Shown: positions 30,667 to 64,000, counted from the stretch's first letter. The stretch is 64,000 nt of DNA from Candidatus Omnitrophota bacterium (GCA_003598025.1 QZKH01000009.1:64896-128895); one strand, 5' to 3'. The notes: a model not told the origin generated them from the letters alone. Made by a program: numbers and translations.

Positions 30667-30957
30667 ATGCAGATTACGCCATTAGGAGACAGAATTCTGG
30701 TTAAGCCTTTGGAAGCTGAAGACAAAACCAAGGGAGGGATAATCTTACCGGATACTGCCAAGGAAAAACCGCAAGAAGGCAGGGTAGTTGCAGTGGGAAA
30801 GGGCAAGGTTTTAGAGGATGGTAAAGTTCAGCCCTTAGAGGTTAAGCCGGGAGACAAAATCCTCTACGGAAAATATTCCGGCACAGAAATAAAATTAGAG
30901 GATGAAGAGCATTTGATTATTAAGGAAGAGGATGTTTTAGCTATTATTATCGATTAA
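30667..30957 (+). CDS. groES: co-chaperonin GroES
   Basis: [14 protein letters not shown]...[12 protein letters not shown]; strong SD AAGGAGGAGGTG before ATG 30667 (the track's 48-aa N-extension rejected). Confidence 0.9.
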
Positions 30958-30961
30958 GTGA

Positions 30962-32599
<1,638 letters not shown>

Positions 32600-39526: not shown

Positions 39527-39529
39527 GAT

Positions 39530-40525: not shown

Positions 40526-40526
40526 T

Positions 40527-41531: not shown

Positions 41532-42379
41532 GTAAAAGTTGCAGGGTAGCTACATTTTTTATTAGCTTGTGTATTTTTGCGGTTGCGAACTTGCCGTGCT
41601 TTGCTGCAACTGATGCTAAGAAAAACGTCAAGGAAGCAAACAGGTTTTACAAACAAGGAAAGCTTGATGAGGCGCTACAGAAATATAATGATGCAAGCGT
41701 AGCCCTTCCTGATTCTGATATCGTAAACTTCAACATGGGGACAGCGTTATATAAAAAAGAAGATTACGAGAAGGCGCAAGATGCCTTTACTAAGGCCTTA
41801 ACCAGCGAAGATAAGAAGCTCGAAGCAGATGCCTTATATAATTTGGGGAATTGCAAATATAAATTGGGTAAGCTTAAAGAAAATACGGATTTATCAACCA
41901 CCGTAGCACTTTTGCGGGAGTCATTGGATTATTATAAAAGAGCGATAGATTTAGACCAGAAAAATACCGATGCGCGTTTTAACCATGAGTTTGTTGAAAG
42001 AGAGCTGAAGGTTTTACTGGATAAATTAAAGCAGCAACAATCTAATACCGATAAACAGAAAGAACAAGAGCAGCAACAGGAGGAACAGAAGCAAGGCACT
42101 TGCCCTACGGGTAAAGAACAGGGTAAGGAAGATAAAGAAAAAGAAGGGTCGGCTCAAGAAAAGGAGCAAAAGCAACAAGAAAAAGAAGGTCAAGAGGGGC
42201 AGTCGCAACAAGAGGAGCAAGCAGCCGCAGAAGAAACACAACAAGAAGAGCAAGGTAAGGAGTTATCAGAAGAAGGGGCACGCGCGCTTTTAGAGCGCTA
42301 TGGGCAAGAAGAAACAACGCCAAATTATGAAGATAGGCGCACCGGAGCCTATGATAGGGAAGTATCGAAGGATTGGTAG
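41528..42379 (+). CDS. BatC-like TPR protein with E/Q/K-rich low-complexity tail
   Basis: TPR repeats (NLGNCKYKLGKL...), long QEQEQQQEEQK tract. Confidence 0.6.
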   Translation: MSKSCRVATFFISLCIFAVANLPCFAATDAKKNVKEANRFYKQGKLDEALQKYNDASVALPDSDIVNFNMGTALYKKEDYEKAQDAFTKALTSEDKKLEADALYNLGNCKYKLGKLKENTDLSTTVALLRESLDYYKRAIDLDQKNTDARFNHEFVERELKVLLDKLKQQQSNTDKQKEQEQQQEEQKQGTCPTGKEQGKEDKEKEGSAQEKEQKQQEKEGQEGQSQQEEQAAAEETQQEEQGKELSEEGARALLERYGQEETTPNYEDRRTGAYDREVSKDW

Positions 42380-42388
42380 ATTAGGATT

Positions 42389-44236
42389 ATGAAGAGGGCA
42401 TTATCTTTTACCTTATTTTTTGCGTTATTTTTAACTTCAGTCGCTCATGCTAGTGATATCCAGCTTGAAGCAACGGTTGACCGCAATAAAATAGCGCTTG
42501 GCGAAGCGCTCCAGCTTAATCTGACTTTTCAGGGAACGCAGAATGTTTCTGCGCCAAGTATAGATAAAATAGAAGGCTTTGATGCGCGCTATCTTGGGCC
42601 TTCTACCATGGTTTCGATTATTAACGGGGCGGTCACAAGTTCCATAACCCACGTTTACACCTTAATTCCTTTAAAGACAGGTACCTTTACCATAGGGCCG
42701 TTTTCCGTGCAAGCTCAAGGGAAAACTCTGACTTCTAAGCCGATAACCGTAGAAGTAGTTTCAGCTCCTACTGGAGGCCAACAATCTGCTCCCGGTCAAG
42801 CCTTACAAGAACCAGCTCCTACAAAAATAGACGCGGAAGAATTAAAGGATAGAATTTTTTTAATCTTGAGCATAGGAAAAAGAAAAGCATATTTAAGTGA
42901 GTTTGTACCGCTAACCGTAAAACTTTATGTAAACCGCTTAGGCGTGCGGGATATTCAGTTCCCCGAAATAGAAACAAACGATTTTTCCATTGAAAAATTT
43001 GGTCAGCCAAAACAGTACCGCGAAGAATTTGGCGGTGTCTTGTATGATGTTATTGAGTTCACGACGAATATGTTTGGAATAAAGCCGGGAGATTTTACTT
43101 TAGGACCGGTAAAATTAAAGTGTAATTTGGTGGTGCGCAGACAAGCTCAAGCGCACCGGCGAACTCCCTTTGATGATGATTTCTTCAACGGGATGTTCAA
43201 TGACGACATTTTTAATGATTTCTTCGGTAGATATGAAGCGTATCCCTTAGAGTTAAAATCCACAGAGATTCCGATTACAGTGTTATCTTTACCGCAAGAA
43301 GGAAAGCCTGAGGGTTTTGATGGAGCATTGGGTAATTTTCAATTAAATGTTGAAGCAATGCCTCTTGAAGTAAAAGCAGGAGATCCTATTGCCTTGAAAA
43401 TGACAATAAAGGGAGAGGGGAATTTTGATAGCGTTAAGGCCCCGCGGTTACAATCCAAAGATGGTTTTAAGGTTTATGACCCACAGGTTAAACAGAATGA
43501 AAACGAGAAAATTTTTGAACAGGTAATTATTCCGGATTCGGAAAACATAACCCATATCCCGCAGATAAATTTCAGTTTCTTTAATACAAAAACAGGACAA
43601 TATGAAGTCTTAACGCATGAACCTATTCCGATAACGGTATTGAAAGCCGATGAGGCTCAAACAAAATTGATAGAATTACCCCAAGCTCAGGTTAAGATCG
43701 CGCAAAAAGAAGAGCTGGGAAGGGATATAATTTACCTTAAAAGCTCGCCTGGCCAATTCAGGAAAATCGGCCGTTATCTTTATCAAAATTTAGGCTTTTG
43801 GCTATTTCAGATATTAAGTCTTATTATATTCTTGGGTATCCTTATTTTTAATCTTAGACAGCAAAGATTAATTACCGATCAACGTTATGCGCGCAGGTTG
43901 CAAGCTCCGGCAAATGCAAAAAAAGGCATAAAAGAAATTGACAGGTTATTGCGGGAAGGTAAAACAGAAGCATTTTTTGACACGCTGTTTAAAACGGTCC
44001 GAGAATACCTGGCTGATAGATTTCATTTGCCCGCAGGCGGCATAACCGCGATTACCATTGAAGAACTAGCCAAAGAAAAAGGTATTGCCCAAGAGACCTT
44101 AGATAAAATAAAGAAAATTTTTGCTGATTGTGATATGGCTAGATACGCGCCCAGCCAATTTGGTCAGAAACAATTAGAAGACATCTTCCAAGACTTGAAA
44201 GAGATTATTGATTATCTGGAGAAGCAAAAGGCATGA
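42389..44236 (+). CDS. BatD-like protein
   Basis: Signal peptide, repeated beta-rich domains, C-terminal TM and cytoplasmic tail. Confidence 0.6.
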   Translation: MKRALSFTLFFALFLTSVAHASDIQLEATVDRNKIALGEALQLNLTFQGTQNVSAPSIDKIEGFDARYLGPSTMVSIINGAVTSSITHVYTLIPLKTGTFTIGPFSVQAQGKTLTSKPITVEVVSAPTGGQQSAPGQALQEPAPTKIDAEELKDRIFLILSIGKRKAYLSEFVPLTVKLYVNRLGVRDIQFPEIETNDFSIEKFGQPKQYREEFGGVLYDVIEFTTNMFGIKPGDFTLGPVKLKCNLVVRRQAQAHRRTPFDDDFFNGMFNDDIFNDFFGRYEAYPLELKSTEIPITVLSLPQEGKPEGFDGALGNFQLNVEAMPLEVKAGDPIALKMTIKGEGNFDSVKAPRLQSKDGFKVYDPQVKQNENEKIFEQVIIPDSENITHIPQINFSFFNTKTGQYEVLTHEPIPITVLKADEAQTKLIELPQAQVKIAQKEELGRDIIYLKSSPGQFRKIGRYLYQNLGFWLFQILSLIIFLGILIFNLRQQRLITDQRYARRLQAPANAKKGIKEIDRLLREGKTEAFFDTLFKTVREYLADRFHLPAGGITAITIEELAKEKGIAQETLDKIKKIFADCDMARYAPSQFGQKQLEDIFQDLKEIIDYLEKQKA

Positions 44237-45003
44237 GAGCCAAAAATATCCGAAATATCTTTATTTTAGCTGCGCTATTCTTACTTCTTTTCTTAGAAGC
44301 AGGATTTGTTTTTGATGATCAGGAAACAGGGGCTTTTAACCGGGCCAATGTTTATTATGAGCAGGGAAATTTTGACGAGGCAATCAAACAATATAAAAGC
44401 ATTGTTGAAGAGGGTCTGGAAAGCGGCAATCTCTATTATAATCTCGGCAATTGTTATTTTAAGAAAGGCAAGCTCGGAGAGGCTATTTTTTACTATGAGA
44501 AGGCTCGCAGACTGATTCCACGGGACAGGGATTTGGAATCTAATTATGAATACGCTTGCTCGTTGATTAAAGGCGGCACTTTCAGTAGCCAGGAAAGCTT
44601 TCCCGCAAGGTTATGGAATAAGCTATTTGAAAAGCTTGCGATTGACGGATTGACTCTCGCACTCAGCATATTTTTTATTTCAATTCTAATTAGCATCTTG
44701 GCGAGTCTTTTCTTTGCGCCGCTTAAAAAACAGGCTTTAATTCTTACTGCCTTTTTGGGATTGTGCTTTGTTGTTGGTCTCGTCGGTCTGAAAGGAAAAA
44801 TTTCTCGCTTAAACAAAGAGGCAATCGTGGTAGTGGAGCAGGCGGATGCCAAATTTGAGCCGATGGAAAAAGCAACAACCTATTTTACTCTCTACGAGGG
44901 TATGAAAGTCGAAGTGGTAGAATCCAGAGATAATTGGCATAAAGTCAAACGCCAGGATAAGAAGAGCGGCTGGGTGCAGTATAGCGCAATCCTTCCCTTT
45001 TAG
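44233..45003 (+). CDS. BatE-like TPR + SH3b protein
   Basis: TPR (YYNLGNCYFKKGKLGEAIFYYEKA), TMs, C-terminal SH3-like WHKVKRQDKKSGWVQYSAI. Confidence 0.55.
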   Translation: MRAKNIRNIFILAALFLLLFLEAGFVFDDQETGAFNRANVYYEQGNFDEAIKQYKSIVEEGLESGNLYYNLGNCYFKKGKLGEAIFYYEKARRLIPRDRDLESNYEYACSLIKGGTFSSQESFPARLWNKLFEKLAIDGLTLALSIFFISILISILASLFFAPLKKQALILTAFLGLCFVVGLVGLKGKISRLNKEAIVVVEQADAKFEPMEKATTYFTLYEGMKVEVVESRDNWHKVKRQDKKSGWVQYSAILPF

Positions 45004-51179: not shown

Positions 51180-52124
51180 ATGAGAAGTGTTATATCCGGC
51201 GCTTTGAGGAATTATCTTTTTCTGACTATTATGTTTCTGGCTGTTTCTGTTCTTGGATGCGACAAGCTGGGTCTTCCGTCTAAGAAGCCTCAAAATAAGA
51301 GGAGCACGGAACCGGTTGCAATGGTAACCGGTACGGTTATCGCCAATGTTAATAATTTACCCATTACTCTTGAAGATTTAGACCGGGAAATAGCTGCTTA
51401 TAACGAACTCATGGAAGCAAACGGGGCTCCGGAATCAAAGATTTCTAATCGCGATGCGAAGATAGATTATTTGAGGAACGATATGGTCAGGCGCGCGTTG
51501 CTGTATCAGGAAGCCCTTGATAGAGGTATGGATAAGAAGTCTGAAGTCAGAAGGATCCTTGAAAGGACCAAAAAAGACCTCCTTGTTGCTGAATTAGTAA
51601 GGGCGGAAACAGAAAATATAGATGTAAGCGCAAAAGAGATAGAGGACTATTATAATAGTTCCAAGAAGATAGGAAGGTCTCTTTTTTATGAAATCGTCAT
51701 TCCCGAGGAAAAGCAAGTCAGAGAAATCATCCTGCCAAGCGAATCCGAAGCAAGAGATATTTTGATACAACTTCTGCAGGGTGCGGATTTTGCAGCGTTG
51801 GCTAAAGAACGTTCAAAAGCTAAGAGCGCAAGTAACGGAGGAGACCTGGGGTTTGTGGCTCCGGGTAGCAAGTTCGCAGAGTTTGATACGGTAGTAGGTA
51901 TGCTTGATGTAGGCAAGGTTAGCAGTATTTTTAAAGGTCCCGATGGATACTATATTATAAAGATAGAAGCAAAGCGCGGAGGCGCGGAAAGATCCTTGTC
52001 AGAAATGTGGGAGAATTTAAAGAAAGAAATCACTTATATAAAGCAGCAGCAAAAACTTGAACAGTTGATTGAGGCGTTGAATAAAAATGCCAAGATTGAG
52101 GTTTATGAAGGAGTAATAAAATAA
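51180..52124 (+). CDS. lipoprotein peptidyl-prolyl isomerase (parvulin/PpiC-type)
   Basis: Lipobox VSVLGC; PpiC domain ...GGDLGFVAPGSKFAEFDTVVGMLDVGKVSSIFKGPDGYYIIKIEAK. Confidence 0.6.
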   Translation: MRSVISGALRNYLFLTIMFLAVSVLGCDKLGLPSKKPQNKRSTEPVAMVTGTVIANVNNLPITLEDLDREIAAYNELMEANGAPESKISNRDAKIDYLRNDMVRRALLYQEALDRGMDKKSEVRRILERTKKDLLVAELVRAETENIDVSAKEIEDYYNSSKKIGRSLFYEIVIPEEKQVREIILPSESEARDILIQLLQGADFAALAKERSKAKSASNGGDLGFVAPGSKFAEFDTVVGMLDVGKVSSIFKGPDGYYIIKIEAKRGGAERSLSEMWENLKKEITYIKQQQKLEQLIEALNKNAKIEVYEGVIK

Positions 52125-53029
52125 TGCCTTTGCCAAAAATCCCCCTATCCAGGCAGCGATTAGCTTTAATCTTCGGGTTGGTCCTTGGTTTGCTGGCGAT
52201 AATAATGCTTAGAAGCTATGTAAACGATCAGAGGGTTAAAGCTGACCAGGAGGCAAGGAAAAAATTACAGATGATTCAGGCAAACCAGACCAGTGTGCTT
52301 GTCGCAAAGAAAGACCTGCCTCCGGGTACGCCGATAGACCCCGAGATGTTTGAAACCAAGATTATTTTTAACAATGAGAAGGCGCCCCGGGCAATAAATT
52401 CTCTGTCCAGGATAGAGGGTATGATTGTAGCTATCCCTATTGCCAAAGGCGAGCAGATAGTAATAGATAAACTGGTCTATGCTCGCGGTGGCGGTAGTCT
52501 TTCTGACTCAACACCTTCAGGCAAGCGGGCGATTTCTATAAATGTCGATAATATAGCTTCATTGGCAGGCATGATTAAACCTGGAAATTATGTAGATGTA
52601 ATAGCAATGGTAGCTCTGCCAATGTCTGCGGGAGAAGGCAGGACTTCTGCCCAGCCGGTAGTCATGCCTTTATTCCAGAATGTACAAATATTAGCAGTGG
52701 GACAAGAGACAAGCATGTCCCCGCAAATAAGCTCAAGCTCCAGATATGGTAAAGAAGAAAAAAGGGATGTATCTTCTATTGTGACGCTGGCGCTTACTCC
52801 GCAGGAGGCCAATATACTATCTTTTGTGCAGGAACAGGGTAAGATTAGGCTGGTTTTGCGTTCTCCTTCAGACTCGAAGGAAGAGCCTATCCGCCCGGTG
52901 AGCTGGGATACGGTTTTTCAATATTTGATGCCACAGCAGGACAGAAAGAATGTGCCGGTAGAAAAACCCAAGCCTACCGTTGAAATTTATAGGGGCTCAA
53001 CTAGAGACGTTGTTACTTTATCTGATTAG
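52124..53029 (+). CDS. cpaB: Flp pilus assembly protein CpaB/RcpC-like
   Basis: N-terminal TM plus SAF-like beta domain; ATGA overlap with previous gene. Confidence 0.55.
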   Translation: MPLPKIPLSRQRLALIFGLVLGLLAIIMLRSYVNDQRVKADQEARKKLQMIQANQTSVLVAKKDLPPGTPIDPEMFETKIIFNNEKAPRAINSLSRIEGMIVAIPIAKGEQIVIDKLVYARGGGSLSDSTPSGKRAISINVDNIASLAGMIKPGNYVDVIAMVALPMSAGEGRTSAQPVVMPLFQNVQILAVGQETSMSPQISSSSRYGKEEKRDVSSIVTLALTPQEANILSFVQEQGKIRLVLRSPSDSKEEPIRPVSWDTVFQYLMPQQDRKNVPVEKPKPTVEIYRGSTRDVVTLSD

Positions 53030-53045
53030 AGATTAAGGAGACATA

Positions 53046-54635
53046 ATGAATAAAAGAAGACTTTGCAAGGGCTTTATGATGCTGAGTTTATTTTTGCTCG
53101 GCTTGAATTCAGTTATTTCAGCAGCCGAAGTCAAATTATATATGGGCGAGACAAAGGTTTTGGCTGTCAGCAGCCCTACCAGAATTGCTATCGGTAACCC
53201 TTCTGTTGCAGATGTCTCCAATGTCAACTCAAACAGCATAACCTTAGTCCCTAAAGGACTGGGCTCTACGTCGCTGGTGCTCTGGGATATATACGGAGAG
53301 CAGGCATACACTTTAAGGGTGCTCCCTGAGAATATAGATTATGCTAAAAAGCGGATTGATGAGCTGCTTAAGTCTTTGAATCTTCCTGAAGTTTATACTA
53401 AGTCGGAAGAAGATGAGGGCCGGATTTTATTGCTAGGCAGGGTCAAAACTCCTCAGGATAGGGAGAGAATAAGCGTTTTGTTGGGCGCTCTCAAGGATAA
53501 AACAATAGATCTCTTAGAAGTTAGAGAAGAAGAAGCCGTTATTGAAATAGATGTGCAGGTTTTAGAGCTTAATAAGGATGCAACAAAGGCTTTGGGGTTG
53601 ACAAACCCGCTTAGTACTCAGGACGGATACAGCATCACTGAAGTAGGCTCTCCAGGATTAACAGGGGCAAAATGGTCAGAGCTGTTTAAAGTCCTAAGCC
53701 TTAAGCGTACCACAGCTTTTAATTGGACGCTTTTCGCTTTGGTCCAAGAAGGCAAAGCCAGGATATTATCTAGGCCAAGATTAGCTTGCCAGAGCGGGAA
53801 AGAAGCAGAGCTTTTAGTCGGAGGGGAGAAGCCGATATTTACTACGCAGGTTGCTTCTGCCGGAGGGCAGGGGACAGAAGTAGAATATAAAGAATATGGG
53901 ATTAAACTCAAGATAAAGCCTACTATCAGCGAGGAGAAAAGAGTAAAGTTAGCCTTGAATGTTGAAGTAAGCGAGGTTGGTGATGCGGAAATAATCGGCT
54001 CAGTAGAAGCCCCTACTGCAAAAGCTTTCCCCTTGACCAAGAGGACAGCGTCTACAGAGTTATTTTTAGATGATGGGCAGACGATGGCAATCGGTGGTTT
54101 GATTAAGAGCAAGAGTGAAGAGGATTATACCAAAACACCCGGCCTTGCAGATATCCCGATATTCGGCATGATGTTTAGGAAAAAAAGCGGTAAAGTCGGA
54201 GGCGGCACAGGGGAAAGAGGAGATAGTGAATTATACATTACTTTAACTCCAAAAGTTATTAGCGAAAAAATTCCCGCCAAAAAATCAGATAACGATAACA
54301 AGAATATTGCCAGTAGCGATCAATCAGCAGGCGTTGAGCCTACATCTACCGAAGGGGTCTATGCAGGCTTAGTGCAACAGCGTATATTAAAGAAAATATC
54401 TTATCCGCTTTCTGCAAAGAAAGCCGGTTTCCAGGGTACGGTGAGGCTCAGTCTTATTATTTCCTATCAGGGTGAATTGCTCGGTGCCACGATTAAGGAT
54501 TCTTCGGGTTACAGAGTGCTTGATGAAAATGCTATCGCAGCGGCCAGGAGCGTTTCTTCTTATCCGCCATTTCCTTCATCCATAGATTCGGAAGAAATAG
54601 AGATTGAAGTCCCGATAGTCTACCAGCTAAACTAA
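53046..54635 (+). CDS. cpaC: Tad secretin CpaC/RcpA with fused C-terminal TonB_C domain
   Basis: Secretin core (…GGLIKSK…TPGLADIPIFGMMFRKK…). C-terminal YPLSAKKAGFQGTVRLSLIISYQGELLGATIKDSSGYRVLDENAIAAARSVSSYPPFP matches the TonB C-terminal signature. Confidence 0.75.
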   Translation: MNKRRLCKGFMMLSLFLLGLNSVISAAEVKLYMGETKVLAVSSPTRIAIGNPSVADVSNVNSNSITLVPKGLGSTSLVLWDIYGEQAYTLRVLPENIDYAKKRIDELLKSLNLPEVYTKSEEDEGRILLLGRVKTPQDRERISVLLGALKDKTIDLLEVREEEAVIEIDVQVLELNKDATKALGLTNPLSTQDGYSITEVGSPGLTGAKWSELFKVLSLKRTTAFNWTLFALVQEGKARILSRPRLACQSGKEAELLVGGEKPIFTTQVASAGGQGTEVEYKEYGIKLKIKPTISEEKRVKLALNVEVSEVGDAEIIGSVEAPTAKAFPLTKRTASTELFLDDGQTMAIGGLIKSKSEEDYTKTPGLADIPIFGMMFRKKSGKVGGGTGERGDSELYITLTPKVISEKIPAKKSDNDNKNIASSDQSAGVEPTSTEGVYAGLVQQRILKKISYPLSAKKAGFQGTVRLSLIISYQGELLGATIKDSSGYRVLDENAIAAARSVSSYPPFPSSIDSEEIEIEVPIVYQLN

Positions 54636-54636
54636 T

Positions 54637-56790
54637 ATGTCAAAAGTCATAGCTTTATTCAGTACAAAAGGCGGCGTAGGCAAGACATTAATCGCAGCTA
54701 ACCTTGCCGTAAGCCTTTTTAAGGATTATTCTAAGAAAGTATTGCTTGTAGACCTTGACCTTCATGTCGTCGGAGATATGGCCAGGATGCTGGATGTAAG
54801 TCCACATCGCTCAATAGCGGATATAATCGTTCATATCAAAAAGCAGCCCGGCGACTCTGTTAAGAAGGAGAGCTATGTCTCTAAGACGTCTATAGGGGTT
54901 GATTTTCTGCCCGCAGTCCTGAAAGCCCAGCAGTCTCCGCATCTTGATGCCCAAAAATTAAAAGATATATTCGAACTTTACGATAAAGATTATGATTTTA
55001 TAATTGTAGATGTCGGCAAAAGCATAACCGACATGCTTGTTTCTACTTTAAACCAGGCAAATTTAATCCTCTTGATTGTAACCCCGGATATTCTATCTAT
55101 CTATCAGACTAAATGGACGCTGGATACCTTAAGATCTTTGCATTTCCCATATAAAATGATAAGGCTTGTCCTTAATAGGGCTGAATCTTTGGCCAGCGTC
55201 AGTTGGCAGGAAGTAAGGATTAACTTTCCGATTGATATTATTGACCAGGTACCTTCTGATGGAAGGGTGGTAGGAAATGCAGTCAACAGGGGCGTGCCGG
55301 TAGTTATCGATAATCCCAAGGCCAAGATTTCCGCGTCAATAAGGCATTTGGCATCATTATTGGTATCCAGGAATGATTATTTTATTGAACGCTCTGAAGT
55401 CAGTCAGATGAAAGTCGAAGAGGACATGCTGGAGAAACCGGCCCAGATATGGCAGGCCGAAGGCTTGACAGAGGCTTTGGGCAAACCCGAAACCCGCGAC
55501 GAGGATGATGAGATATTAAAACTTAAAAGGCGCATACACGATAGATTGATAGAGGAGCTTAATTTAAAAAGGATAGATTCAAAAGTATTCAGCGATCCTA
55601 AAAAAGCCAGGGAATTAAGAAATAAGGCAGAGATATTAGTTGCTAATCTTCTGGTTGAAGAGGCGGGTAGCTTTATTACTTCTCATGATGTGCGCAGAAA
55701 ATTGACCAAAGAGATACTCGATGAGGCCTTGGGCCTTGGCCCGCTTGAAGATTTACTTGCCGATGGCGCGATAACCGATATCATGGTCAACAATAAGGAC
55801 GAAATATATATAGAGAAAAATGGAAAAATTGAGCTTACTACCAAGAAGTTTATTTCTAATGAACAGGTAAAGACTACCATTGAAAGAATAATCGCTCCGT
55901 TAGGAAGAAGAATAGATGAATCTGTGCCGATGGTCGATGCCCGTTTGCCGGACGGCTCTCGTGTAAATGCGATAATTTCCCCGCTTTCGTTAACCGGGCC
56001 TACATTAACAATAAGAAAATTCCGCAAGGAAAGATTCACCATTGACGAGTTAATCGGTATTAAAACTTTAAGCAGGGAGATGTCGGATTTCATAAAGGCA
56101 TGCGTTTTAGCAAGAAAAAACATCATTGTTTCCGGTGGTACCGGTTCCGGTAAGACAACCATACTCAATATTCTGTCTGCTTTTATACCGGATTATGAAA
56201 GGATTGTTACTATTGAGGATGCCGCTGAATTGAAACTGCATCAGGAGCATTGGGTTCGGCTTGAGGCTAGACCGCCGAATATCGAAGGTAAAGGCGCAGT
56301 AACAATACGAGATCTTTTCCGCAACAGCTTAAGGATGAGGCCGGATAGGATCATAATTGGTGAGTGTCGCGGGCTTGAAACCATGGATATGCTACAGGCG
56401 ATGAACACCGGCCACGACGGTTCTATGACTACGCTTCACGCCAACTCAACCCATGATGTCCTGGTGAGGCTCGACTCTATGATTTTGATGTCAGGAGTTG
56501 AGTTACCAGTCAGGGCTATCAGGGAAATGGTGGCCTCAGCGTTACATGTTATTGTCCATACCGCCCGTATGTCTGATGGCTCAAGAAAGATTATAGAAAT
56601 TACCGAAGTCGCAGGAATGAGGGATGACATCCATGTTGATTTAAAAGATATATTCTCGTTTAAGCAGACCGGCATAGATAAAGAGGGGAATGTATTAGGA
56701 GATTTCCAGGCAACAGGTTACATACCGTCATTCATTGAAGAGATCAAAGTCAAAGGTATTCCTCTTTCTGAGGATATGTTTAAGATATAA
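54637..56790 (+). CDS. fused CpaE (MinD/ParA-like) - CpaF/TadA (VirB11-like) pilus ATPase
   Basis: N-terminal [15 protein letters not shown] (deviant Walker A). C-terminal GGTGSGKTT and [13 protein letters not shown]...[13 protein letters not shown], typical of TadA. Confidence 0.8.
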
Positions 56791-56803
56791 CATCACTTCC
56801 TGA

Positions 56804-57148
56804 ATGAAAATAATCAACACAACTCAAAATACAATTTTAGCAGATAAGGCTGTTTTAGCAGATAACCCTTTCTCTAGGATGAAGGGATTATTAGGCAGGA
56901 AGGCGCTTTACGATGGAGAGGCGCTGGTACTAAAACCCGCCAATTCCATTCATACATTCTTTATGCGTTTTTCCATAGATGTCATATTTTTAGGTAGAGA
57001 TAATAAGGTAGTTAAAATCATATCTCACCTTAAACCCTTTAGATTATCCCCGTTATATTTTAGTTCTTCGATTGTAATAGAGCTACCTTCAGGATACATA
57101 AAAAAAACCAATACCAAAGAATCCGATATCCTATCCATCCAGCCTTAG
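56804..57148 (+). CDS. DUF192 protein (common in tad loci)
   Basis: ADNPFSRMKGLLGRK...FFMRFSIDVIFLGRDNKVV. Confidence 0.55.
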   Translation: MKIINTTQNTILADKAVLADNPFSRMKGLLGRKALYDGEALVLKPANSIHTFFMRFSIDVIFLGRDNKVVKIISHLKPFRLSPLYFSSSIVIELPSGYIKKTNTKESDILSIQP

Positions 57149-57150: not shown

Positions 57151-57817
57151 CCGTTTCTCCCGCTCTTCAGGGACCGTTTCTCTTGCTGACCACAAAGGTG
57201 CCCCCATAGAGCCGTATTAAACTTCTTTTAAGGTATCTAGTAGATTATTAAACTGTCCCGACATGCGATATCTTGCGCTACTATAAGGATAGCTAAAAGG
57301 AGATAAGGCAATATTGGCTCTCACGGGATTTGATTCAACATATTCGATACATTTTAAGAGGTAATCGTCACTTAGAATAGCCAAGCTTTTATATCTGCCT
57401 TGCCATAGATGGCCAACCTTTTTATATCTGCCATTATACCAAGAGGTATAAGTTAAGTTGACCTTCAACATGATTTTTGACAAAATTTTTCCGTCAACTA
57501 ATCCAAGCAGTAAATGAACATGGTTAGGCATCAGGCAATAACAGAATACCTTGAATTTGCATTCTTTCTTGTAATGCCTTAGAATGTCGAGATATTTTAC
57601 GTAGTCTGTTTCATCATGGAATATGATCTGCTTTTGATTACCCCTTGTTAAAACGTGATAAAAACACCTATCAAGCAATAATCTCTTGGGTTTTGTCATA
57701 ATTCCACCTCCAAATGATTAGACGAAAATAAGGGAGTCTATCTAACGAATTTTCTTAAATAGGGGCACTTCTATGAAGAGCAACGGAAACGGTCTGTGAA
57801 GAGCGGGAGAAACGGCC
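57151..57817. mobile_element. IS200/IS605-like (RayT/REP-associated) element with ~55-bp imperfect inverted ends
   Basis: Left end 57151-57205 CCGTTTCTCCCGCTCTTCAGGGACCGTTTCTCTTGCTGACCACAAAGGTGCCCC. Right end 57762-57817 is its imperfect reverse complement. Each end contains the CCGTTTCTC direct repeat. Confidence 0.65.
57217..57699 (-). CDS. tnpA: Y1 (HuH) transposase, IS200/IS605 TnpA / RayT-like
   Basis: FYHVLTRGN...; HVHLLL (HuH); catalytic Y in ...YSSARY. Confidence 0.8.
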   Translation of the reverse strand: MTKPKRLLLDRCFYHVLTRGNQKQIIFHDETDYVKYLDILRHYKKECKFKVFCYCLMPNHVHLLLGLVDGKILSKIMLKVNLTYTSWYNGRYKKVGHLWQGRYKSLAILSDDYLLKCIEYVESNPVRANIALSPFSYPYSSARYRMSGQFNNLLDTLKEV

Positions 57818-57909: not shown

Positions 57910-59523
57910 ATGGGAATAATCTATAAGCTAACCGAACAAGCTAAAAATATAGTTCTTGATGAAAAGCGCAATAATCCCAAGTTAAGCTGCAGGAAATTAG
58001 TTTTATTATTAAAAAATAAGCATAATTTAGTACTTTCCAAATCCAGCATAAATTCTATTGTTAAAGAGGCGGGTTTAAGTCAGTCAGTAGGAAGAAAACC
58101 TGCAAAAATAACTCCAAAAAAAGTTAGGCCCTCAGTACCCACCCCGAAAGAAGCAATCGTTGAAAATTCAGCTGTAATAAGCGAACCTGTTCCAATTGTA
58201 ATTGAGCCGCCCCAGGTTAAGGTTAAAGAATCTCCGGTGCTAATTGAAAATGCCGGATACGTTTTTTTAAAAATAGCCGATGATCTAATAGGCGGAGGCA
58301 GACAAATTGCATCTATAATTGCTTCAAAGCTTAATAACGTAACTACTTCTGATATAATGAGTTACAATAATTCGCTTTTATTTAGAGCATTCAATGCTAC
58401 TTCTATTTTGACAGCCATTCAAAGCCTTTCTCCCAATGAGGTAGGTTTATCTTCATATCTTGCTGATTTACAATCAGTTACGAACATTACCCCCAGGCTT
58501 ATAAAAGCGCTTACAGATGCTTTTACGCGGATAAGAGGCTATAGATTATATTTCTCCGATAATTCAACATTATTTCTTGATAGCCAATTTCGATCTGTAT
58601 GGCAGGTGCCTAACATGCCAATTGATTTTTCTCTATCATATTTAAATGCAAGCAGTTACGTTAAGAGTATCATAAATCACTATAAGAATTTTTGTATTCA
58701 ATCAGGAGCTAAAGATAACTTAATTCCTGAAGAATTCATTGATTTATGTATAGGTTTATCTAACTCCGGTAAAACATTAAAAAACATAAGCTTGTTTTCT
58801 GATAACTTAACTGAGATTGAAAATATTGCTGTTCAGCAGGAGCAGCAGCCTTTTACTCTGGTGGCTGGTTTCTGGAGCGATCAAATTAGGGGGGGAATTA
58901 AAATAAATATGGTCAAGGATTTTGAATCAGCTTTCATTGGAGAATTATCGACTCAGCTTCATATTGGTTTTGCTGATTTAGATGTTACGCAACTAACTGC
59001 AAATAAAAGAGTTAAATTAAAAGGCTACTTGATAAAATCATCCCCTAATGATAAAAGGTTCCTTGTAATCGCATCAAGCAATTATTCAGAACCATTTGAT
59101 AATCAAGGGGTTATAGTAGATTATTTAAAGCTTTGGCCAAATTATTTTGAGGGTTTTATTGACTTTAAACGAAAATATGAGGCTTTTACTTATCTGCCTG
59201 AGCCCGCAGCGAATTTTAATTTTAAAGACTTAGGGCCGAATAGCGATATAAAGGCAACCCTCAGGGAATATTTTAACGGACTTGATTTCTATGTCAGGAG
59301 ATATATTCTGCCTCCAGATTACGAAACTGAATCTTTCTCGACGATAAATGAGCATTTTTACAGCCTTAAAGCAGTTGTCATGGATAAAACAAGCCATTTC
59401 CAGCTTAAATTCCAGGTTCCCGATGGTTACAAATTTACCAGCGTAGTTAGATACGCCTGCCGCAGGGCAAATGAGCGATCAGCAATGTTTGCCGATGGTA
59501 AAAAGATATTACTTGAAATATGA
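57910..59523 (+). CDS. uncharacterised 537-aa protein in tad locus
   Basis: ORF only; N-terminal HTH-like segment and a P-rich linker; no recognised family. Confidence 0.35.
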   Translation: MGIIYKLTEQAKNIVLDEKRNNPKLSCRKLVLLLKNKHNLVLSKSSINSIVKEAGLSQSVGRKPAKITPKKVRPSVPTPKEAIVENSAVISEPVPIVIEPPQVKVKESPVLIENAGYVFLKIADDLIGGGRQIASIIASKLNNVTTSDIMSYNNSLLFRAFNATSILTAIQSLSPNEVGLSSYLADLQSVTNITPRLIKALTDAFTRIRGYRLYFSDNSTLFLDSQFRSVWQVPNMPIDFSLSYLNASSYVKSIINHYKNFCIQSGAKDNLIPEEFIDLCIGLSNSGKTLKNISLFSDNLTEIENIAVQQEQQPFTLVAGFWSDQIRGGIKINMVKDFESAFIGELSTQLHIGFADLDVTQLTANKRVKLKGYLIKSSPNDKRFLVIASSNYSEPFDNQGVIVDYLKLWPNYFEGFIDFKRKYEAFTYLPEPAANFNFKDLGPNSDIKATLREYFNGLDFYVRRYILPPDYETESFSTINEHFYSLKAVVMDKTSHFQLKFQVPDGYKFTSVVRYACRRANERSAMFADGKKILLEI

Positions 59524-59562: not shown

Positions 59563-59591
59563 TTGACTAGTATATATATAAATGCTATATT
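59563..59591 (+). promoter_or_regulatory. promoter TTGACT-17-TATATT
   Basis: Read directly. Confidence 0.45.
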
Positions 59592-59599: not shown

Positions 59600-59798
59600 A
59601 AGACGGCAGCGAAAACTCCGGACAAAGATTCGGAGTCCCGACATTTCGTCGGGAGGCAATTCCATTATTGGAGGTAATGGATGCGCAAAGCCACGGGACG
59701 ATGCTCGTCACAAATCAGTCTTTATCCAGTTTTTCGTTTTGGGTCGCAAACGAGAGCGTTAGCCGGGTTACCGAAAGCCGTATGGTTTTCGGTTTTTT
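59600..59798 (+). ncRNA. structured 5' leader, candidate c-di-GMP-I (GEMM)-like riboswitch with intrinsic terminator
   Basis: GGCAATTCC-ATTATTGG...TAATGG-ATGCGCAAAGCCACGGGACG resembles the GEMM core (GGCAAACC...GACGCAAAGCC.CGGG, recalled from memory). Terminator CCGAAA-gccgtatgg-TTTCGG+T7 at 59771-59798. Leader precedes the flp pilin genes. Confidence 0.4.
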
Positions 59799-59860
59799 AT
59801 TTTTTGGGCTTGTTAACAACTTTTAAAAAGATTTAAATAACTGAAAAGGAGGTGAAGAAT

Positions 59861-60046
59861 ATGTTAAGCAAAAGAGGTCAGTCAACATTGGAGTATGTAT
59901 TGATTCTTACTGCTATCATCGCTGCGATAATCTTGGTCGCCAATAATTTTGTCAGGCCAAGAGTAGGGTCATCTTTGGACCATGTAACTAATCAGATGGA
60001 GCAGCAAGCAAACAGAATCCAGTTCGGAGCAGCGCCAGTTGAATAA
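59861..60046 (+). CDS. flp: Flp/Fap-family pilin
   Basis: MLSKRGQSTLEYVLILTAIIAAIILV (G/QSTxEY prepilin motif); SD AAAGGAGGTG. Confidence 0.7.
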   Translation: MLSKRGQSTLEYVLILTAIIAAIILVANNFVRPRVGSSLDHVTNQMEQQANRIQFGAAPVE

Positions 60047-60073
60047 AATTAATAGAAAAGGGGGGTGAATTAA

Positions 60074-60502
60074 ATGTTAAAAATCTTAGGTAAAAGAGCA
60101 CAAACTACTGCCGAATATGCTGTTTTGATTGCACTGGTAGTTGGTGCAGTTGTAGCAATGCAGGTCTATGTAAGGAGAGGTTTGCAGGGAAGGATCAGAA
60201 ACGTCGTTGATCACGTTGATTCCGGTGGGCCCGTAGGGCAAGACGAGGACCAATTTACATTCACTGCTGAGCAGTATGAACCGTATTATTTGTCTTCTCA
60301 GTCAGCCACAGCCCGTGAAAGCACACAACAGGAAATCTTAGGCCGCGGCGGCGAGGTTGGAAGAGGTACTGCAGAGGCAACAGGGGTACAGCGTCAACAG
60401 ATTATGGGTTGGGATGATACGACTTTAGCTACGCCAGTAGCGGCTCCCAGCGTAACAGAGCCGGGAATGCCGACTGTACCGCAACCAGAGAATGTTGAAT
60501 AA
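60074..60502 (+). CDS. Flp-like pilin with ~100-aa C-terminal extension
   Basis: MLKILGKRAQTTAEYAVLIALVVGAVVAM... Confidence 0.6.
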   Translation: MLKILGKRAQTTAEYAVLIALVVGAVVAMQVYVRRGLQGRIRNVVDHVDSGGPVGQDEDQFTFTAEQYEPYYLSSQSATARESTQQEILGRGGEVGRGTAEATGVQRQQIMGWDDTTLATPVAAPSVTEPGMPTVPQPENVE

Positions 60503-60519
60503 TAAAGGAGGTGGAGTAA

Positions 60520-60864
60520 ATGTTCATACATTTAAATAAAAGAGGCCAAAGCACATTGGAATACGCTCTTATTATAGCTGTAATAATAGCAGCTTTAATT
60601 GCTATGCAGACGTATTTCAAAAGAGGCCTTCAGGGCAGGTTAAAGCAAGCAAGCGATGATGTCGGCGAACAATTCTCATCAGGAGCCAGCTACTATGACT
60701 ATACTACGCAGACCAGTATTTCATCTAATGAAGAGGTAAAGCCTGGTGTTGATGATACATCCAGAGGCGGGATCACTCAAACAGATACTACCCAGAATGT
60801 TACCAGGACAGGTACTGAGCATGTTGCTGAATACGGGGACACAGGCGAGTATTGGCCACAATAA
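60520..60864 (+). CDS. Flp-like pilin with C-terminal extension
   Basis: MFIHLNKRGQSTLEYALIIAVIIAALIAM... Confidence 0.6.
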   Translation: MFIHLNKRGQSTLEYALIIAVIIAALIAMQTYFKRGLQGRLKQASDDVGEQFSSGASYYDYTTQTSISSNEEVKPGVDDTSRGGITQTDTTQNVTRTGTEHVAEYGDTGEYWPQ

Positions 60865-60943
60865 TAGCATGGTATATGATGGGAGCACCATTTATGCCGA
60901 TTATGTTTACAAAAGAGAAATTAGGTGAAAAAGGAGCGTAGCT

Positions 60944-61795
60944 ATGTTTTTGGCGATTGCGTTATTCTCAATATCTTCGATATGCCTTATTGCTTCTGTA
61001 GTTTTTCCTTGGGCTGATGATAAGCGTTTAGCCTGGCAGGATGAGAAGGAAAAGACTATAGGCAGGAAGATGGACGATATGTTTTACTATGACAGAAGCC
61101 CAAGGCAGATCGTGCTACTTTATTATATGCTGCCACCAATACTAGCTACGCTCAGCTATTATTTAGTATCAAAATCCCTCCTTGTAATATTTTTTGCAGC
61201 AGGATTAGGTGTAGCTATCCCCAATATTATTCTCAAAGTAAGAGACGCTAATAGAAGAAGAAAATTCCGCCAGCAGATCCTTGATTGCCTCATGCTATTA
61301 TCAAGCTGCCTAAAGGGCGGCTTATCTCTTTTACAGTCTTTTGAAGTTATAGTAGAAGAGATGCCTGCTCCAATGGCGCAGGAGATGGGTCTGTTAGTCA
61401 GGGAAAATAAGATGGGTGTTACTTTAGAGGAGGCTCTAAAGAGGTTCGATAGGCGTATACAAACCGAAGAATGGAGCCTGGTAATTAATTCTATTTTGGT
61501 TGCCAGGGAAACAGGCGGTGATTTAACCAAGGTTTTCAGCCGGCTTTGTACGACGATCAGAGATAATCAAAAACTTAAAGATAGCATACAGACACTCACT
61601 CTTCAGGGCAGGCTGCAGGGTATTATAATGTCAGCGCTGCCGTTTTTGTTTGTTGCCTGGGTATTACAGTTCAATAAAAATCATTTTGATGTTATGTGGC
61701 AGAATGATTTAGGAAGGATGCTTATGATTGCGGCGATACTTTTACAGATTGTCGGTATGGTTTTAATCCGCAAATTCAGCATCATTAAGATATAG
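60944..61795 (+). CDS. tadB: TadB (T2SS-F family inner-membrane platform protein)
   Basis: T2SSF domain; 3 TM. Confidence 0.7.
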   Translation: MFLAIALFSISSICLIASVVFPWADDKRLAWQDEKEKTIGRKMDDMFYYDRSPRQIVLLYYMLPPILATLSYYLVSKSLLVIFFAAGLGVAIPNIILKVRDANRRRKFRQQILDCLMLLSSCLKGGLSLLQSFEVIVEEMPAPMAQEMGLLVRENKMGVTLEEALKRFDRRIQTEEWSLVINSILVARETGGDLTKVFSRLCTTIRDNQKLKDSIQTLTLQGRLQGIIMSALPFLFVAWVLQFNKNHFDVMWQNDLGRMLMIAAILLQIVGMVLIRKFSIIKI

Positions 61796-61808
61796 GAAGG
61801 GATTTAAT

Positions 61809-62666
61809 ATGGAAATATATATATATGCCCTTATATTCGCAAGTTTATTGTTTATACTCTTGGGCATTTTTGGCTTTGGTTCGGAACGCAGCGGTAAATA
61901 TAAACTGCCGGTAAATGAAATCGAAGTCAAAAAAGCAAATATGCACCAGATCCTTACTAATATGTTCCCGTTTACCAGGAAGCTTCTTGAAAGGCTTGGG
62001 ACGTATCAGAAGCTGCGTTTAAAATTGGAAGGGGCACACGTAAATTTATCCCCGATAGAGTTTTTTAATATAAAGATAATATTAATATTCGTCTTATTAA
62101 TCGTATCGATATTCTCATTCGGCAAGTTTGAACCGATGGCCATAGCTGTTTCTTTGGCTGCGGGGTATTTATTGCCGGAAATATGGGTTGCTCTAAAAAT
62201 AAAAAAACGTAAAGAAGAAATAGTAAGGCGCCTTCCAGAAACGGTGGATTTATTAAGCCTTTGCGTTGAGGCAGGGCTTGATTTTACTATGGCAGTAAAA
62301 TGGGTAGTTGAGAAGGTTACATTAAACCCTATGCTTGAAGAATTACGTTTCCTTCTTGAAGAGATAAAATGGGGCAAATCACGCTCCCAGGCATTAAGGG
62401 ATATGTCAAGGAGGATAAATGTGCCTGAGGTTACATCTTTTGCCCAGACACTTATCCAGGCAGACAGGATGGGTACGCCCGTGGGTGAGGCATTTATGAT
62501 ATTGTCAGAAGATACTCGGTTAAGGCGGTTCCAGAGAGGCGAAAGAATAGCCCTTAAAGCGCCTATTAAGATACTGATACCTTTGATATTTTGCATATTA
62601 CCGGTTATCGCAATTATTATCGGCGGGCCGATACTTATACAGTTTTCGAACAATAAATTATTTTAA
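61809..62666 (+). CDS. tadC: TadC (T2SS-F family)
   Basis: T2SSF domain. Confidence 0.7.
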   Translation: MEIYIYALIFASLLFILLGIFGFGSERSGKYKLPVNEIEVKKANMHQILTNMFPFTRKLLERLGTYQKLRLKLEGAHVNLSPIEFFNIKIILIFVLLIVSIFSFGKFEPMAIAVSLAAGYLLPEIWVALKIKKRKEEIVRRLPETVDLLSLCVEAGLDFTMAVKWVVEKVTLNPMLEELRFLLEEIKWGKSRSQALRDMSRRINVPEVTSFAQTLIQADRMGTPVGEAFMILSEDTRLRRFQRGERIALKAPIKILIPLIFCILPVIAIIIGGPILIQFSNNKLF

Positions 62667-62680
62667 GGGGGCGTTTGGTG

Positions 62681-62845
62681 ATGGAGCAGGCAAAGAATAA
62701 AAAAGCACAAAGTATAATGGAATACATGCTTATTATGACTGTTGTCATCGCCGCTATCATTTCGGTCGGTTTTCTTGACAATGTAAAAGGGATTTTCCGT
62801 AATTATTTTGATTCTATGGTGAGCTGGATTTCTGCTCTACCTTAA
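62681..62845 (+). CDS. Flp-family pilin (54 aa)
   Basis: MEQAKNKKAQSIMEYMLIMTVVIAAIISV; not in ORF track. Confidence 0.55.
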   Translation: MEQAKNKKAQSIMEYMLIMTVVIAAIISVGFLDNVKGIFRNYFDSMVSWISALP

Positions 62846-62861
62846 AAGGGGAAGGTTGAAT

Positions 62862-63026
62862 ATGGTTAAAAGGTATCACGATAAAAGGGCTCAAAGTATC
62901 CTGGAATACGCCATGTTGATAATTGTTATAGCTACGGCGCTTATGGTCATGAATACGTACATCCAACGTGCTATAACCGCTCGTTTAAGACAAGTCCATG
63001 AAGAGCTCAATGAGTCCAGGAGATAA
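62862..63026 (+). CDS. Flp-family pilin (54 aa)
   Basis: MVKRYHDKRAQSILEYAMLIIVIATALMVM; SD GGGGAAGG; not in ORF track. Confidence 0.55.
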   Translation: MVKRYHDKRAQSILEYAMLIIVIATALMVMNTYIQRAITARLRQVHEELNESRR

Positions 63027-63028
63027 AG

Positions 63029-63358
63029 ATGCGTTTAAGCAGGAAAGGGCAGAGTACTTACGAATTTGCATTAGTGGTCATAGTCTTAGTCGCTGCGTTG
63101 ATCAGTATGCAGGTTTATATAAAAAGAGCTGTACAGGGAAGGTTAAAAGACAGCATACAACAGTCAGGAGAAGATTTTTATGCTCCCAGGGAGACGACGG
63201 GCACAACCGTTACGCAAACAACGATCGAAGAGAGCCGTGAATCTGAATTACAGCCGGGGATTATGTTTATCGGTGATGATATACAATATGGCCATACAAA
63301 TACTGTAACCGAAGAGCACACTGAATCAAGAGAAGATATTTTACCTGCGGTTTATTAA
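63029..63358 (+). CDS. Flp-like pilin with C-terminal extension
   Basis: MRLSRKGQSTYEFALVVIVLVAALISM... Confidence 0.6.
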   Translation: MRLSRKGQSTYEFALVVIVLVAALISMQVYIKRAVQGRLKDSIQQSGEDFYAPRETTGTTVTQTTIEESRESELQPGIMFIGDDIQYGHTNTVTEEHTESREDILPAVY

Positions 63359-63370
63359 GCAGGAGGCAGA

Positions 63371-64000
63371 ATGTTTATTATGGCAACAAAAATAAAACGC
63401 TCAATCAAAGGCAACGTGTTCTTGGAATATGCCTTGATTATAGGGATAGTAGCGGCAGCATTGATAACAATACAATTATATGTTAAGCGCGGACTGCAGG
63501 GCAGGGTAAGGCAAATGACCGATGTTTTTATAGGTGAAACCCAAGTCAGCCAGGTTGATAAAGAGGTTGTATCCGGCTCTTTGACTACTACTGAGCCTTT
63601 TGGCCCAATGACAAGAACAGAAAGGCGGCAGTTTCTTCCCGGGGGGGCGACATCCAGGGAATACACAGAGGATAAAAAGACAGAAGCAGAAAGCCGAACA
63701 GAGGACGTAGCTCAATCAGGATGGCTTAGCCTTTTTGATTCATTTGTTAATGTAGATGCCGTAGAGTACGACCCTGAGGGTAATTATACGGATGATACCG
63801 GTTATATGGGTGAAGGTGACTGGTGGGAAGAAGTAACTGATATTGCGGTATTACAAGCTGAAATAGACCGGCTTAATGAAGAAATAGCATATCTGAACGA
63901 AGGCAGCGGCACAATAGGTGAAGAAGGTAATAATATGATGGATATGATCAGCCAGCTTCTTGGCTCTTTTGGCGGTTCAGGCCTTATTGGCGACATATTA
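63371..64000 (+). CDS. Flp-like pilin N-terminus fused to a long (>180 aa) acidic C-terminal domain; continues past window end
   Basis: MFIMATKIKRSIKGNVFLEYALIIGIVAAALITI...; frame open through 64000. Confidence 0.55.
   Translation, partial: MFIMATKIKRSIKGNVFLEYALIIGIVAAALITIQLYVKRGLQGRVRQMTDVFIGETQVSQVDKEVVSGSLTTTEPFGPMTRTERRQFLPGGATSREYTEDKKTEAESRTEDVAQSGWLSLFDSFVNVDAVEYDPEGNYTDDTGYMGEGDWWEEVTDIAVLQAEIDRLNEEIAYLNEGSGTIGEEGNNMMDMISQLLGSFGGSGLIGDIL

Follow-up and report, generated by a model that had tools for sequence, protein, structure and literature searches.

Can a Tad (type IVc) pilus system make use of pilins that are much larger than the tiny, all-alpha subunits normally seen? The question is raised by a locus at positions 59861 to 64000 of a 64,000 nucleotide (nt) stretch of DNA, here called the window, from a Candidatus Omnitrophota bacterium (GCA_003598025.1 QZKH01000009.1:64896-128895). 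Described Flp pilins are 50 to 80 amino acids (aa) and all-alpha, and KilP, at 97 aa, is still all-alpha (PMC12075869), in line with the premise of the initial annotation of this locus that Flp pilins are short. Tad pilins are also stated to lack a globular beta domain (PMC11067988). About half of the pilins in Omnitrophota loci of this kind belong to a conserved class that breaks this rule. Four of the seven encoded in the window have genuine C-terminal extensions, those of P2 and P3 being conserved domains, and the hairpin and coiled-coil pilins so formed are without a described counterpart.

The Omnitrophota are widespread, uncultured, mostly ultra-small and suspected of being predators or parasites, with the Tad system being a main genomic argument for such a lifestyle (PMC10066038). 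That system is known at the level of its machinery (TadBC and RcpA) and has been reported to be expressed in Candidatus Velamenicoccus archaeovorus (PMC10066038). Only these machinery genes, and not the pilin complement, have been analysed so far.

The pilin genes and their N-termini

The window is part of a 140,854 bp contig from Joint Genome Institute (JGI) metagenome 3300038436, with window position 1 at record position 64891, and on sequence grounds the source organism of the pilin locus is Candidatus Omnitrophota. Seven plus-strand pilin-type open reading frames (ORFs), P1 to P7, were read from the window, arranged around tadB and tadC (Table 1); the placing of pilin genes on both sides of these two genes in the initial annotation is borne out by the T2SSF domains of their products. 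A hidden Markov model (HMM) built solely from the first 58 residues of 37 homologs from outside the window matched exactly P1 to P7 among the 1009 six-frame segments of the 64 kb window, at E 2e-36 to 8e-8, with no further match up to E = 10. Because a model made without window sequences recovers exactly those seven, the earlier description of seven pilin ORFs is accurate. The independent JGI gene calls on the source contig are the same, and a Shine-Dalgarno sequence precedes each gene. Some overlapping ORFs in alternative frames nearby, such as 62998-63240 (+) and 62006-62653 (-), are spurious.

In-frame stops were verified for the complete ORFs and the earlier lengths of 142, 114, 109 and more than 210 aa are correct. 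On the source contig the last of these, P7, is complete at 253 aa (positions 10343-11104 of the source locus, L001) and would end at the window equivalent of 64132. Seven is an underestimate for the locus as a whole. Just past the window end there are four more proteins with class III-type N-termini, P8 to P11 (268, 96, 621 and 435 aa), and with these the pilin-like genes of the operon number 11 or more. What the region covers is the front of this Tad pilin operon.

All seven window proteins have the leader, cut site, Glu at +5 and hydrophobic helix of about 20 residues of class III type IV prepilins. The leaders are short and basic, with 6 to 14 residues overall and 6 to 12 in P1 to P6, Gly or Ala is at -1, and position +6 is Tyr except in P6, where it is Phe. 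The shared G/A-QS-x-x-EY start reported initially holds for P1 to P6 in the slightly broader form [KR]-[GA], cut, Q-[ST]-x-x-E-[YF], with Gln at +1 and a hydrophobic helix following, but not for P7, which has a 14-residue leader and the cleavage region G, cut, NVFLEY, with Asn at +1. The Flp motif, E-Y at +5/+6 (E-F in P6), is present in all seven. For the Class_IIIsignal family (PF04021, archaeal Epd/EppA type), P1 scores 25.5 bits against a gathering threshold of 23.7, P2 and P3 fall below it with 18.5 and 19.9 bits, and P4 to P7 have no match; 15 of 38 P3-family members match at E <= 0.01. TadE (PF07811), TadF (PF16964) and Tad (PF13400) have no significant match in P1 to P7, the lone hit being P6 to TadF at E 0.18.

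P1, P4 and P5 are short, all-alpha pilins of the ordinary Flp type. Orthologs of P1 in other loci are 50-67% identical and usually lie immediately before the P2-P3 pair. P4, the weakest match of the HMM made without window sequences (E 8e-8), has positional orthologs in loci L011, L012, L032, L034 and L069, and P5 (E 9e-15) has orthologs that are 50-57% identical.

The window pilins resemble two groups, with the short leader and Gln at +1 being Epd-like and the Tyr at +6 being Flp-like. The Flp/Tad pilins (Caulobacter PilA, Aggregatibacter Flp1, Myxococcus KilP) share with this locus its gene content, comprising a TadA-type ATPase, TadB, TadC, RcpC/CpaB and secretin, as well as the cut after Gly or Ala followed by xxxxE-Y and the alpha-1N helix. 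P1, P4 and P5 are of the usual Flp size at 54-61 aa; P2, P3, P6 and P7 exceed it. P2, P3 and P6 differ from these known pilins by an added predicted beta-hairpin, which in the P2 and P3 models has 18+18 residues and departs from the all-alpha fold, and P7 by a coiled coil; the leaders of 6 to 14 residues and the Gln at +1 are further differences. EppA-dependent archaeal pilins have leaders of 5-13 residues, Gln at +1 and Glu at +5 and no Tyr at +6 (PMC3875500). The Epd pilins (PF04021/DUF361; Methanococcus maripaludis MMP1685, EpdA-C) are like the window set in the short leader ending in Gly, in Gln +1 and Glu +5, and in having both tiny and much larger pilin-like paralogs. However, the host here is a bacterium, a secretin and CpaE/TadZ are present, Tyr +6 is found that is absent from the M. 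maripaludis pilins, and no EppA-type peptidase was identified. An Epd-like archaeal system has been inferred as the ancestor of Tad systems (PMC6668835), and this mixture of Epd and Flp traits is relevant to the archaeal origin that has been proposed for Tad pili.

Conservation, predicted folds and modules of the extended pilins

A total of 180 homologs of P3 were identified, of 100-130 aa and with 45-60% identity across 95-100% of the length, and 160 homologs of P2, of 110-150 aa. The homologs of the two proteins span about 80-100% of the query, and every named one is from Candidatus Omnitrophota. As there are 160 and 180 near-full-length homologs, the extensions are not missed stop codons, and the refutation considered in the initial annotation fails; its four extended genes out of seven are genuine. 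Annotation artefacts, whether over-long ORFs, read-through or chance ORFs, would be almost inconceivable; nothing was found in their favour, and against them stand the verified stops, the agreement of the JGI calls and the hundreds of full-length homologs that conserve the C-terminal motifs QYEPYY and RTG-x-E ... EYW.

The P3-type alignment (A1) has invariant Q10, T12, E14, Y15, Y32, R35, G36, Q38, G39, D46 and G49. It also conserves GEQFSPG, RTG-x-E and the terminal EYW, and has a variable-length region between two Thr/Ser-rich segments. The P2-type alignment (A2) has an invariant QYEPYY, a near-invariant Gly in the middle of the extension and the motif R-x-Q-x-x-GW; relative to it, the Pro/Thr-rich tail is an addition of the window copy of P2. 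E14 and Y15 are invariant in both alignments. At E <= 1e-3, a profile search of 1.84 billion proteins with A1 matched 4651 representatives of 50%-identity clusters; 1781 of them remain at E <= 1e-10.

Structure prediction of the extensions gave one long polar beta-hairpin for each of P2 and P3. The AlphaFold2 model of P3, made from A1, has a helix at 12-51 and the hairpin at 57-74/85-102, with a predicted local distance difference test (pLDDT) score of 72.6; that of P2, made from A2, has a helix at 6-46, the hairpin at 72-89/95-112 and a low-confidence tail, with a pLDDT of 73.9. The alignments back these models independently, since the insertions and deletions and the conserved Gly coincide with the predicted turns. 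Both faces of the extension are polar. Beyond precursor residue 55, Thr makes up 21% and Ser 11% of the A1 family and Cys is absent, the mature proteins having an isoelectric point of about 4.4. This is not the classical type IV pilin fold, in which the alpha-1 helix packs on a globular antiparallel sheet of at least four strands, as the models consist of a helix and a single two-stranded hairpin. Foldseek searches of the PDB with both models gave no pilin or other protein at E <= 0.001, and a profile search of PDB sequences gave 0 matches. The generic long hairpins listed by Foldseek (pore-forming-toxin stems, flagellar rings, ribosomal proteins) were not read as homology.

A scan of species-representative genomes gave 333 relatives. 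The best 80 of these loci, used for comparison, are essentially all from Omnitrophota and include the Tad locus of Ca. V. archaeovorus LiM. In the LiM genome (NZ_CP019384.1) the orthologs are located at about 21464-21715 (P1-type), 21758-22114 (P2-type) and 22154-22471 (P3-type). An iterated HMM search of 81 non-redundant loci identified 624 pilin-like ORFs. Their lengths are bimodal, with 192 ORFs of 50-70 aa and 272 of 100-130 aa. In the 40 loci that are 18 kb or longer, the number of pilin genes ranges from 6 to 11 (median 8.5). A P3-type gene is directly after 60 of the 79 P2-type genes, usually with a short Flp gene before the pair; in L003, L007 and L009 the pair as a whole occurs in duplicate. 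The presence of tadBC between P3 and P4 is common to a sub-clade that includes L010-L012, L032, L034, L049 and L069. The Tad locus does hold an expanded pilin family, as the initial annotation had it, but its P2 and P3 are, on this comparison, a conserved phylum-wide pair rather than the product of a recent paralog expansion.

Some of these loci are labelled 'Planctomycetia', 'Dehalococcoidia' or 'Deltaproteobacteria', and a spread of the family beyond the Omnitrophota was considered; for the testable loci it was rejected, the labels being mislabels. For example, L039 (CAYYFL010000010.1, 'uncultured Planctomycetia') has 99.6% DNA identity over 17.4 kb to Ca. V. archaeovorus LiM (L040), and the other tested loci with odd labels and machinery have the same fused CpaE/F protein, at 54-67% identity. 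L015/L002 and L038 have no machinery genes in the stretch fetched and stand outside this test. Several other 'Planctomycetales' metagenome-assembled genomes bear typical Omnitrophota Tad loci. L002 itself (GCA_041300405.1, 2.3 Mb contig, 841834-862187), in a record labelled Dehalococcoidia, is a satellite locus with Omnitrophota-type pilins and no Tad machinery within 10 kb. It contains a riboswitch, an unknown protein of about 513 aa and seven pilin genes (P4, P5, P1, P2, P3, a P8-like gene and a 484 aa form).

The extended proteins are variations on one plan. P2, P3, P6 and P7 have in common an N-terminal module of about 50 residues that ends in Y-x-K-R-G-L-Q-G-R, here called the collar. This motif is found in 230 of the ORFs in the census, mostly of 100-150 aa and with a median of 3 per long locus; in P5 it is degenerate (Y-I-Q-R-A-I-T-A-R). 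The P2 and P3 families are homologous over 94 columns, including the hairpin (hhalign 99.9%). P6 aligns to A1 with a probability of 99.4% over 64 columns, which are the N-terminal module and the first strand, and the beta-hairpin is probably carried by P6 too. In P7 and P11, only the N-terminal 43-46 residues match A1 (43 columns for P7), including Y-x-[KR]-R-[GAN]-[LVI]-Q-[GQ]-[RK], and there is a coiled coil in place of the hairpin; in Pfam, P7 has weak prefoldin-like and coiled-coil matches.

Among the pilin-like ORFs of the other 80 loci there is nothing homologous to the C-terminal regions of P6, P7 and P11, and full-length P7 matched only itself among 5.8 billion proteins. Within the reach of these searches, P6 and P7 have lineage-specific C-terminal modules, and that of P7 is an orphan. 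P2, P3, P6, P7 and P11 can be described from their alignments as a modular subfamily that is so far known from Omnitrophota only.

Larger pilin-like proteins with variable C-terminal modules are also found among TadE/F/G and the KilL/M/N 'Tip' complexes, where they are proposed to customise the tip. P2, P3, P6 and P7 differ from these in lacking matches to the corresponding models, in their predicted build of a helix and one hairpin, and in the KRGLQGR collar, which is not described there.

Streptococcus sanguinis PilB and PilC follow the same design principle, with a pilin module and an extra C-terminal functional module. They are type IVa-like, with a full globular pilin domain and a recognisable functional domain, whereas here a minimal Flp-type helix carries hairpin or coiled-coil modules.

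The P2/P3 pair and the hypervariable modules placed on a common assembly module provide concrete candidates for host-contact determinants. They are also a defined target for cryo-electron microscopy or AlphaFold-multimer work on type IV filament diversity.

Control of the operon and the place of the extended pilins

The leader of the pilin operon contains a cyclic di-GMP (c-di-GMP) riboswitch aptamer of class I (RF01051), preceded by a promoter-like site, called as the best consensus match in the region, and followed by a terminator-like hairpin with a T-run (Table 1). RF01051 is also directly upstream of the first pilin gene in four of the seven related loci tested (L002, L003, L005 and L007; 37.2-51.4 bits); no match in L004, L012 or L040, the LiM locus, reached the gathering score. 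The terminator hairpin is likely to be the expression platform of the riboswitch. The closing stem of the aptamer, UCGG/CCGA, shares 4 nt with the 5' arm of the terminator; therefore, ligand binding should disfavour termination, which suggests a riboswitch that acts in the ON direction. Such a riboswitch ties the display of the pilus to second-messenger signalling in a phylum without genetics.

Of the proteins encoded past the window end, P9 falls just short of the TadE cutoff (22.6 bits against 22.9) and is borderline TadE-like, P10 (L001 12188-14053) is TadG-like, with 29.1 bits against 22.3 for Pfam Tad, and has no Glu at +5, and P8 adjoins these two. The tip-most pilins often lack Glu at +5. 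P11 (L001 14958-16265) is an acidic coiled-coil protein. The C-termini of P10 and P11 consist of a coiled coil followed by P-x-C-(S)-F, with a weak pairwise similarity (E 1e-4), and the two may possibly form a disulfide-linked pair. The P-x-C ending was considered as a general feature and rejected, as it is found only in this locus and L026.

In the Kil pilus of Myxococcus there is one all-alpha Flp major pilin, together with short Flp adapters and interchangeable TadE/F/G-like tip trimers (PMC12075869). By analogy, P1 would be the best candidate for the shaft subunit and is the probable major pilin, P4 and P5 are possible adapter pilins, and P8 to P10 would likely be the tip set of the operon. 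Transcription is predicted to start near 59590 and to run through the riboswitch, whose closing stem would compete with the intrinsic terminator, so that c-di-GMP binding would permit read-through into the pilin genes. The prepilins would be processed by a peptidase encoded elsewhere in the genome, and TadB, TadC and the CpaF ATPase would draw them out of the membrane to build a filament, which exits through the secretin. The helices of the extended pilins could dock into the filament core beside the TadE/F/G-like tip set, displaying their modules at or near the pilus tip, where these may contact surfaces or host cells. P2 and P3 would be a fixed pair in such a filament and P6, P7 and P11 the variable elements.

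It seems fairly probable, if by no means assured, that extended pilins of the P2, P3, P6 and P7 type are accessory subunits incorporated into the pilus. The suggestion in the initial annotation that they are minor, tip or adhesin-bearing pilins is plausible, but no adhesin domain is recognisable in them and the canonical tip-type set is P8 to P10, beyond the window. Several observations weigh against accessory subunits. Cleavage and pilus incorporation of these proteins are predictions from sequence and models, and the models of P2 and P3 are of moderate confidence (pLDDT ~73, predicted template modelling score ~0.3) and depict monomers of would-be polymer proteins. None of P1 to P7 reaches the cutoff of Flp_Fap (PF04964, 32.2 bits), the best score being 22.2 bits for P3, with lower scores of 17.3 for P7 and 16.1 for P5; the Flp identity first given to the set holds for the tad locus and the E-Y motif, but not for this family model, and P1 passes Class_IIIsignal instead. 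Tad major pilins are processed by a dedicated prepilin peptidase of the TadV/CpaA (A24) type, but a search of the 64 kb window, of the 10 kb that follow it and of about 1.3 Mb of related loci found no prepilin peptidase. There is no A24 peptidase in the Pfam lists of L001-L004, and a scan of the window and 84 loci for the A24 motif GxGD[VF]K found none, which is a weak negative. The ON direction of the riboswitch comes from the 4 bp overlap and thermodynamic folding alone. Tested as a sign of co-assembly, the lengths of the P2 and P3 hairpins gave a covariation of rho -0.04, which is uninformative with only 13 adjacent pairs passing the end-motif filter.

The position of P2 and P3 at the front of the operon, their strong ribosome-binding sites, near-universal presence and, in some loci, tandem duplication fit abundant shaft subunits equally well. 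P2 and P3 could be co-major subunits that polymerise with or without P1 along the whole filament. Their polar hairpins, of 18 residues per strand, would pair between neighbouring subunits to give a beta-sheet coat on an alpha-helical core, making a heteropolymeric Tad pilus of new architecture. No other pilin types of these loci are as conserved or as widespread as P2 and P3, which are encoded at the front of the operon behind the riboswitch, have strong Shine-Dalgarno sites and, as a pair, are duplicated in three loci. Such a long hairpin, polar on both faces, would probably not be stable by itself as a monomer, and the only structural neighbours it has are hairpins that oligomerise into barrels. 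However, all characterised type IV filaments have one major pilin, with the extra pilins encoded in their operons being minor, a canonical short Flp of the P1 type is conserved directly upstream of the pair, and the low-power test above gave no covariation of hairpin lengths. Co-major subunits are the main rival explanation, though judged unlikely.

It is quite improbable that the extended proteins lie outside the filament, either as membrane-anchored periplasmic parts or as the pseudopilus or secreted substrates of a Tad-derived secretion machine, with the class III N-terminus serving only membrane targeting or processing and release. In favour of this, neither a prepilin peptidase nor a pilus is demonstrated in this organism, the conserved basic Y-x-KRGLQGR collar after the membrane helix could dock a component of the machinery rather than make a filament contact, and the extensions are acidic, polar and partly of low complexity. 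Against this, the alpha-1N helix has throughout the family the invariant Glu +5 and Tyr +6 that mark polymerising pilins, tadB/tadC and genes for TadE/G-like pilins lie among those of the extended proteins, and the Tad complex of a related species is reported to be expressed (PMC10066038). Incorporation as accessory subunits remains the preferred explanation. A new Tad architecture is a doubtful proposal. In it, P2 and P3 co-polymerise with their hairpins interlocked as a beta-sheet sheath or collar around a minimal Flp-type helical core, P6, P7 and P11 bring, on the shared N-terminal module, exchangeable elements for contact with host or prey, and c-di-GMP switches the whole on. If true, the pilus would be the organelle with which these ultra-small bacteria attach or prey, and the earliest known example of an ordered layer of beta structure in a filament of the Flp type.

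Neighbouring genes and other features of the window

Table 1. Coordinates of the pilin locus and its upstream region in the window
Feature	Position	Strand	Details
Tad machinery: CpaB/RcpC, secretin, CpaE(TadZ)-CpaF(TadA), DUF192 protein	52124-57148	+	Pfam
Secretin with C-terminal TonB_C domain	53046-54635	+	
Fused CpaE/TadZ and CpaF/TadA	54637-56790	+	717 aa
Conserved 537 aa protein, helix-turn-helix (HTH)-like N-terminus	57910-59523	+	weak HTH_Tnp_Tc3_2 match only
Promoter-like site	59563-59591	+	TTGACT, 17-nt spacer, TATATT, extended TG; 10/12 consensus positions
c-di-GMP-I riboswitch aptamer (RF01051)	59645-59775	+	37.1 bits vs gathering score 35, full model
Terminator-like hairpin and T-run	59770-59803	+	10-bp stem, 5 GC pairs, then TTTTTTATTTT; -14.4 kcal/mol
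P1, short Flp/class III prepilin	59861-60046	+	61 aa; leader MLSKRG, cut, QSTLEY; Class_IIIsignal above cutoff
P2, extended pilin	60074-60502	+	142 aa; N-terminal module, QYEPYY, predicted long beta-hairpin, Pro/Thr-rich tail
P3, extended pilin	60520-60864	+	114 aa; N-terminal module, GEQFSPG, predicted Thr/Ser-rich beta-hairpin, terminal EYW
tadB, inner-membrane platform protein	60944-61795	+	T2SSF PF00482, E 2.4e-19
tadC, inner-membrane platform protein	61809-62666	+	T2SSF PF00482, E 2.5e-17
P4, short Flp-like prepilin	62681-62845	+	54 aa from ATG, 56 aa from TTG 62675; KKA, cut, QSIMEY
P5, short Flp-like prepilin	62862-63026	+	54 or 56 aa; KRA, cut, QSILEY
P6, extended pilin	63029-63358	+	109 aa; N-terminal module and acidic Thr-rich extension
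P7, extended pilin	63371 to beyond 64000	+	210 codons in window; N-terminal module and acidic coiled-coil module

The machinery genes upstream of the pilin operon are kept in the same order in L003 and L004. A rotamase gene also lies upstream. The TonB_C domain of the secretin and the fusion of CpaE/TadZ with CpaF/TadA both recur in these two loci, and the DUF192 gene is always right after the ATPase gene. In the window, an IS200/Y1_Tnp-type transposase gene (57217-57699, -) lies between the genes for the DUF192 and 537 aa proteins; it is absent from L003 and L004.

The 537 aa protein is soluble and is encoded directly upstream of the riboswitch and pilin array. A homolog, with a median identity of 27%, is found in 68 of the 81 pilin loci, including the machinery-less L002. 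Its weak HTH_Tnp match raised the possibility of a transposase, which was rejected because the gene is kept at the same position in those 68 loci. It may be a conserved regulator or assembly factor.

Right after the pilin genes of the source contig, L001 16278-19052 codes for a protein of 924 aa, without a Pfam match, whose N-terminus resembles a signal anchor. From L001 19505 to beyond 20330 there is a gene for a protein of more than 1144 aa with a Peptidase_C39 domain, as found in ABC-type bacteriocin or effector exporters.

Elsewhere in the window there are two paralogous large serine-recombinase-like ORFs, at 1094-3055 (-) and 23430-25538 (-), of 653 and 702 aa and with nearly identical N-terminal regions, the first of which runs into the tRNA gene at 1202-1273. 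The GC content is raised to 0.44-0.49 around 2-6 kb and 22-28 kb, and these regions and the recombinase ORFs are possible signs of integrated mobile elements. Genes for three small heat-shock proteins are at 28581-30406 and GroES/GroEL at 30529-32599. A Bat (aerotolerance-type) operon is present at 35506-45003 (+), encoding a MoxR-like ATPase, a DUF58-type protein, BatA/BatB-like von Willebrand factor A proteins and tetratricopeptide repeat proteins.

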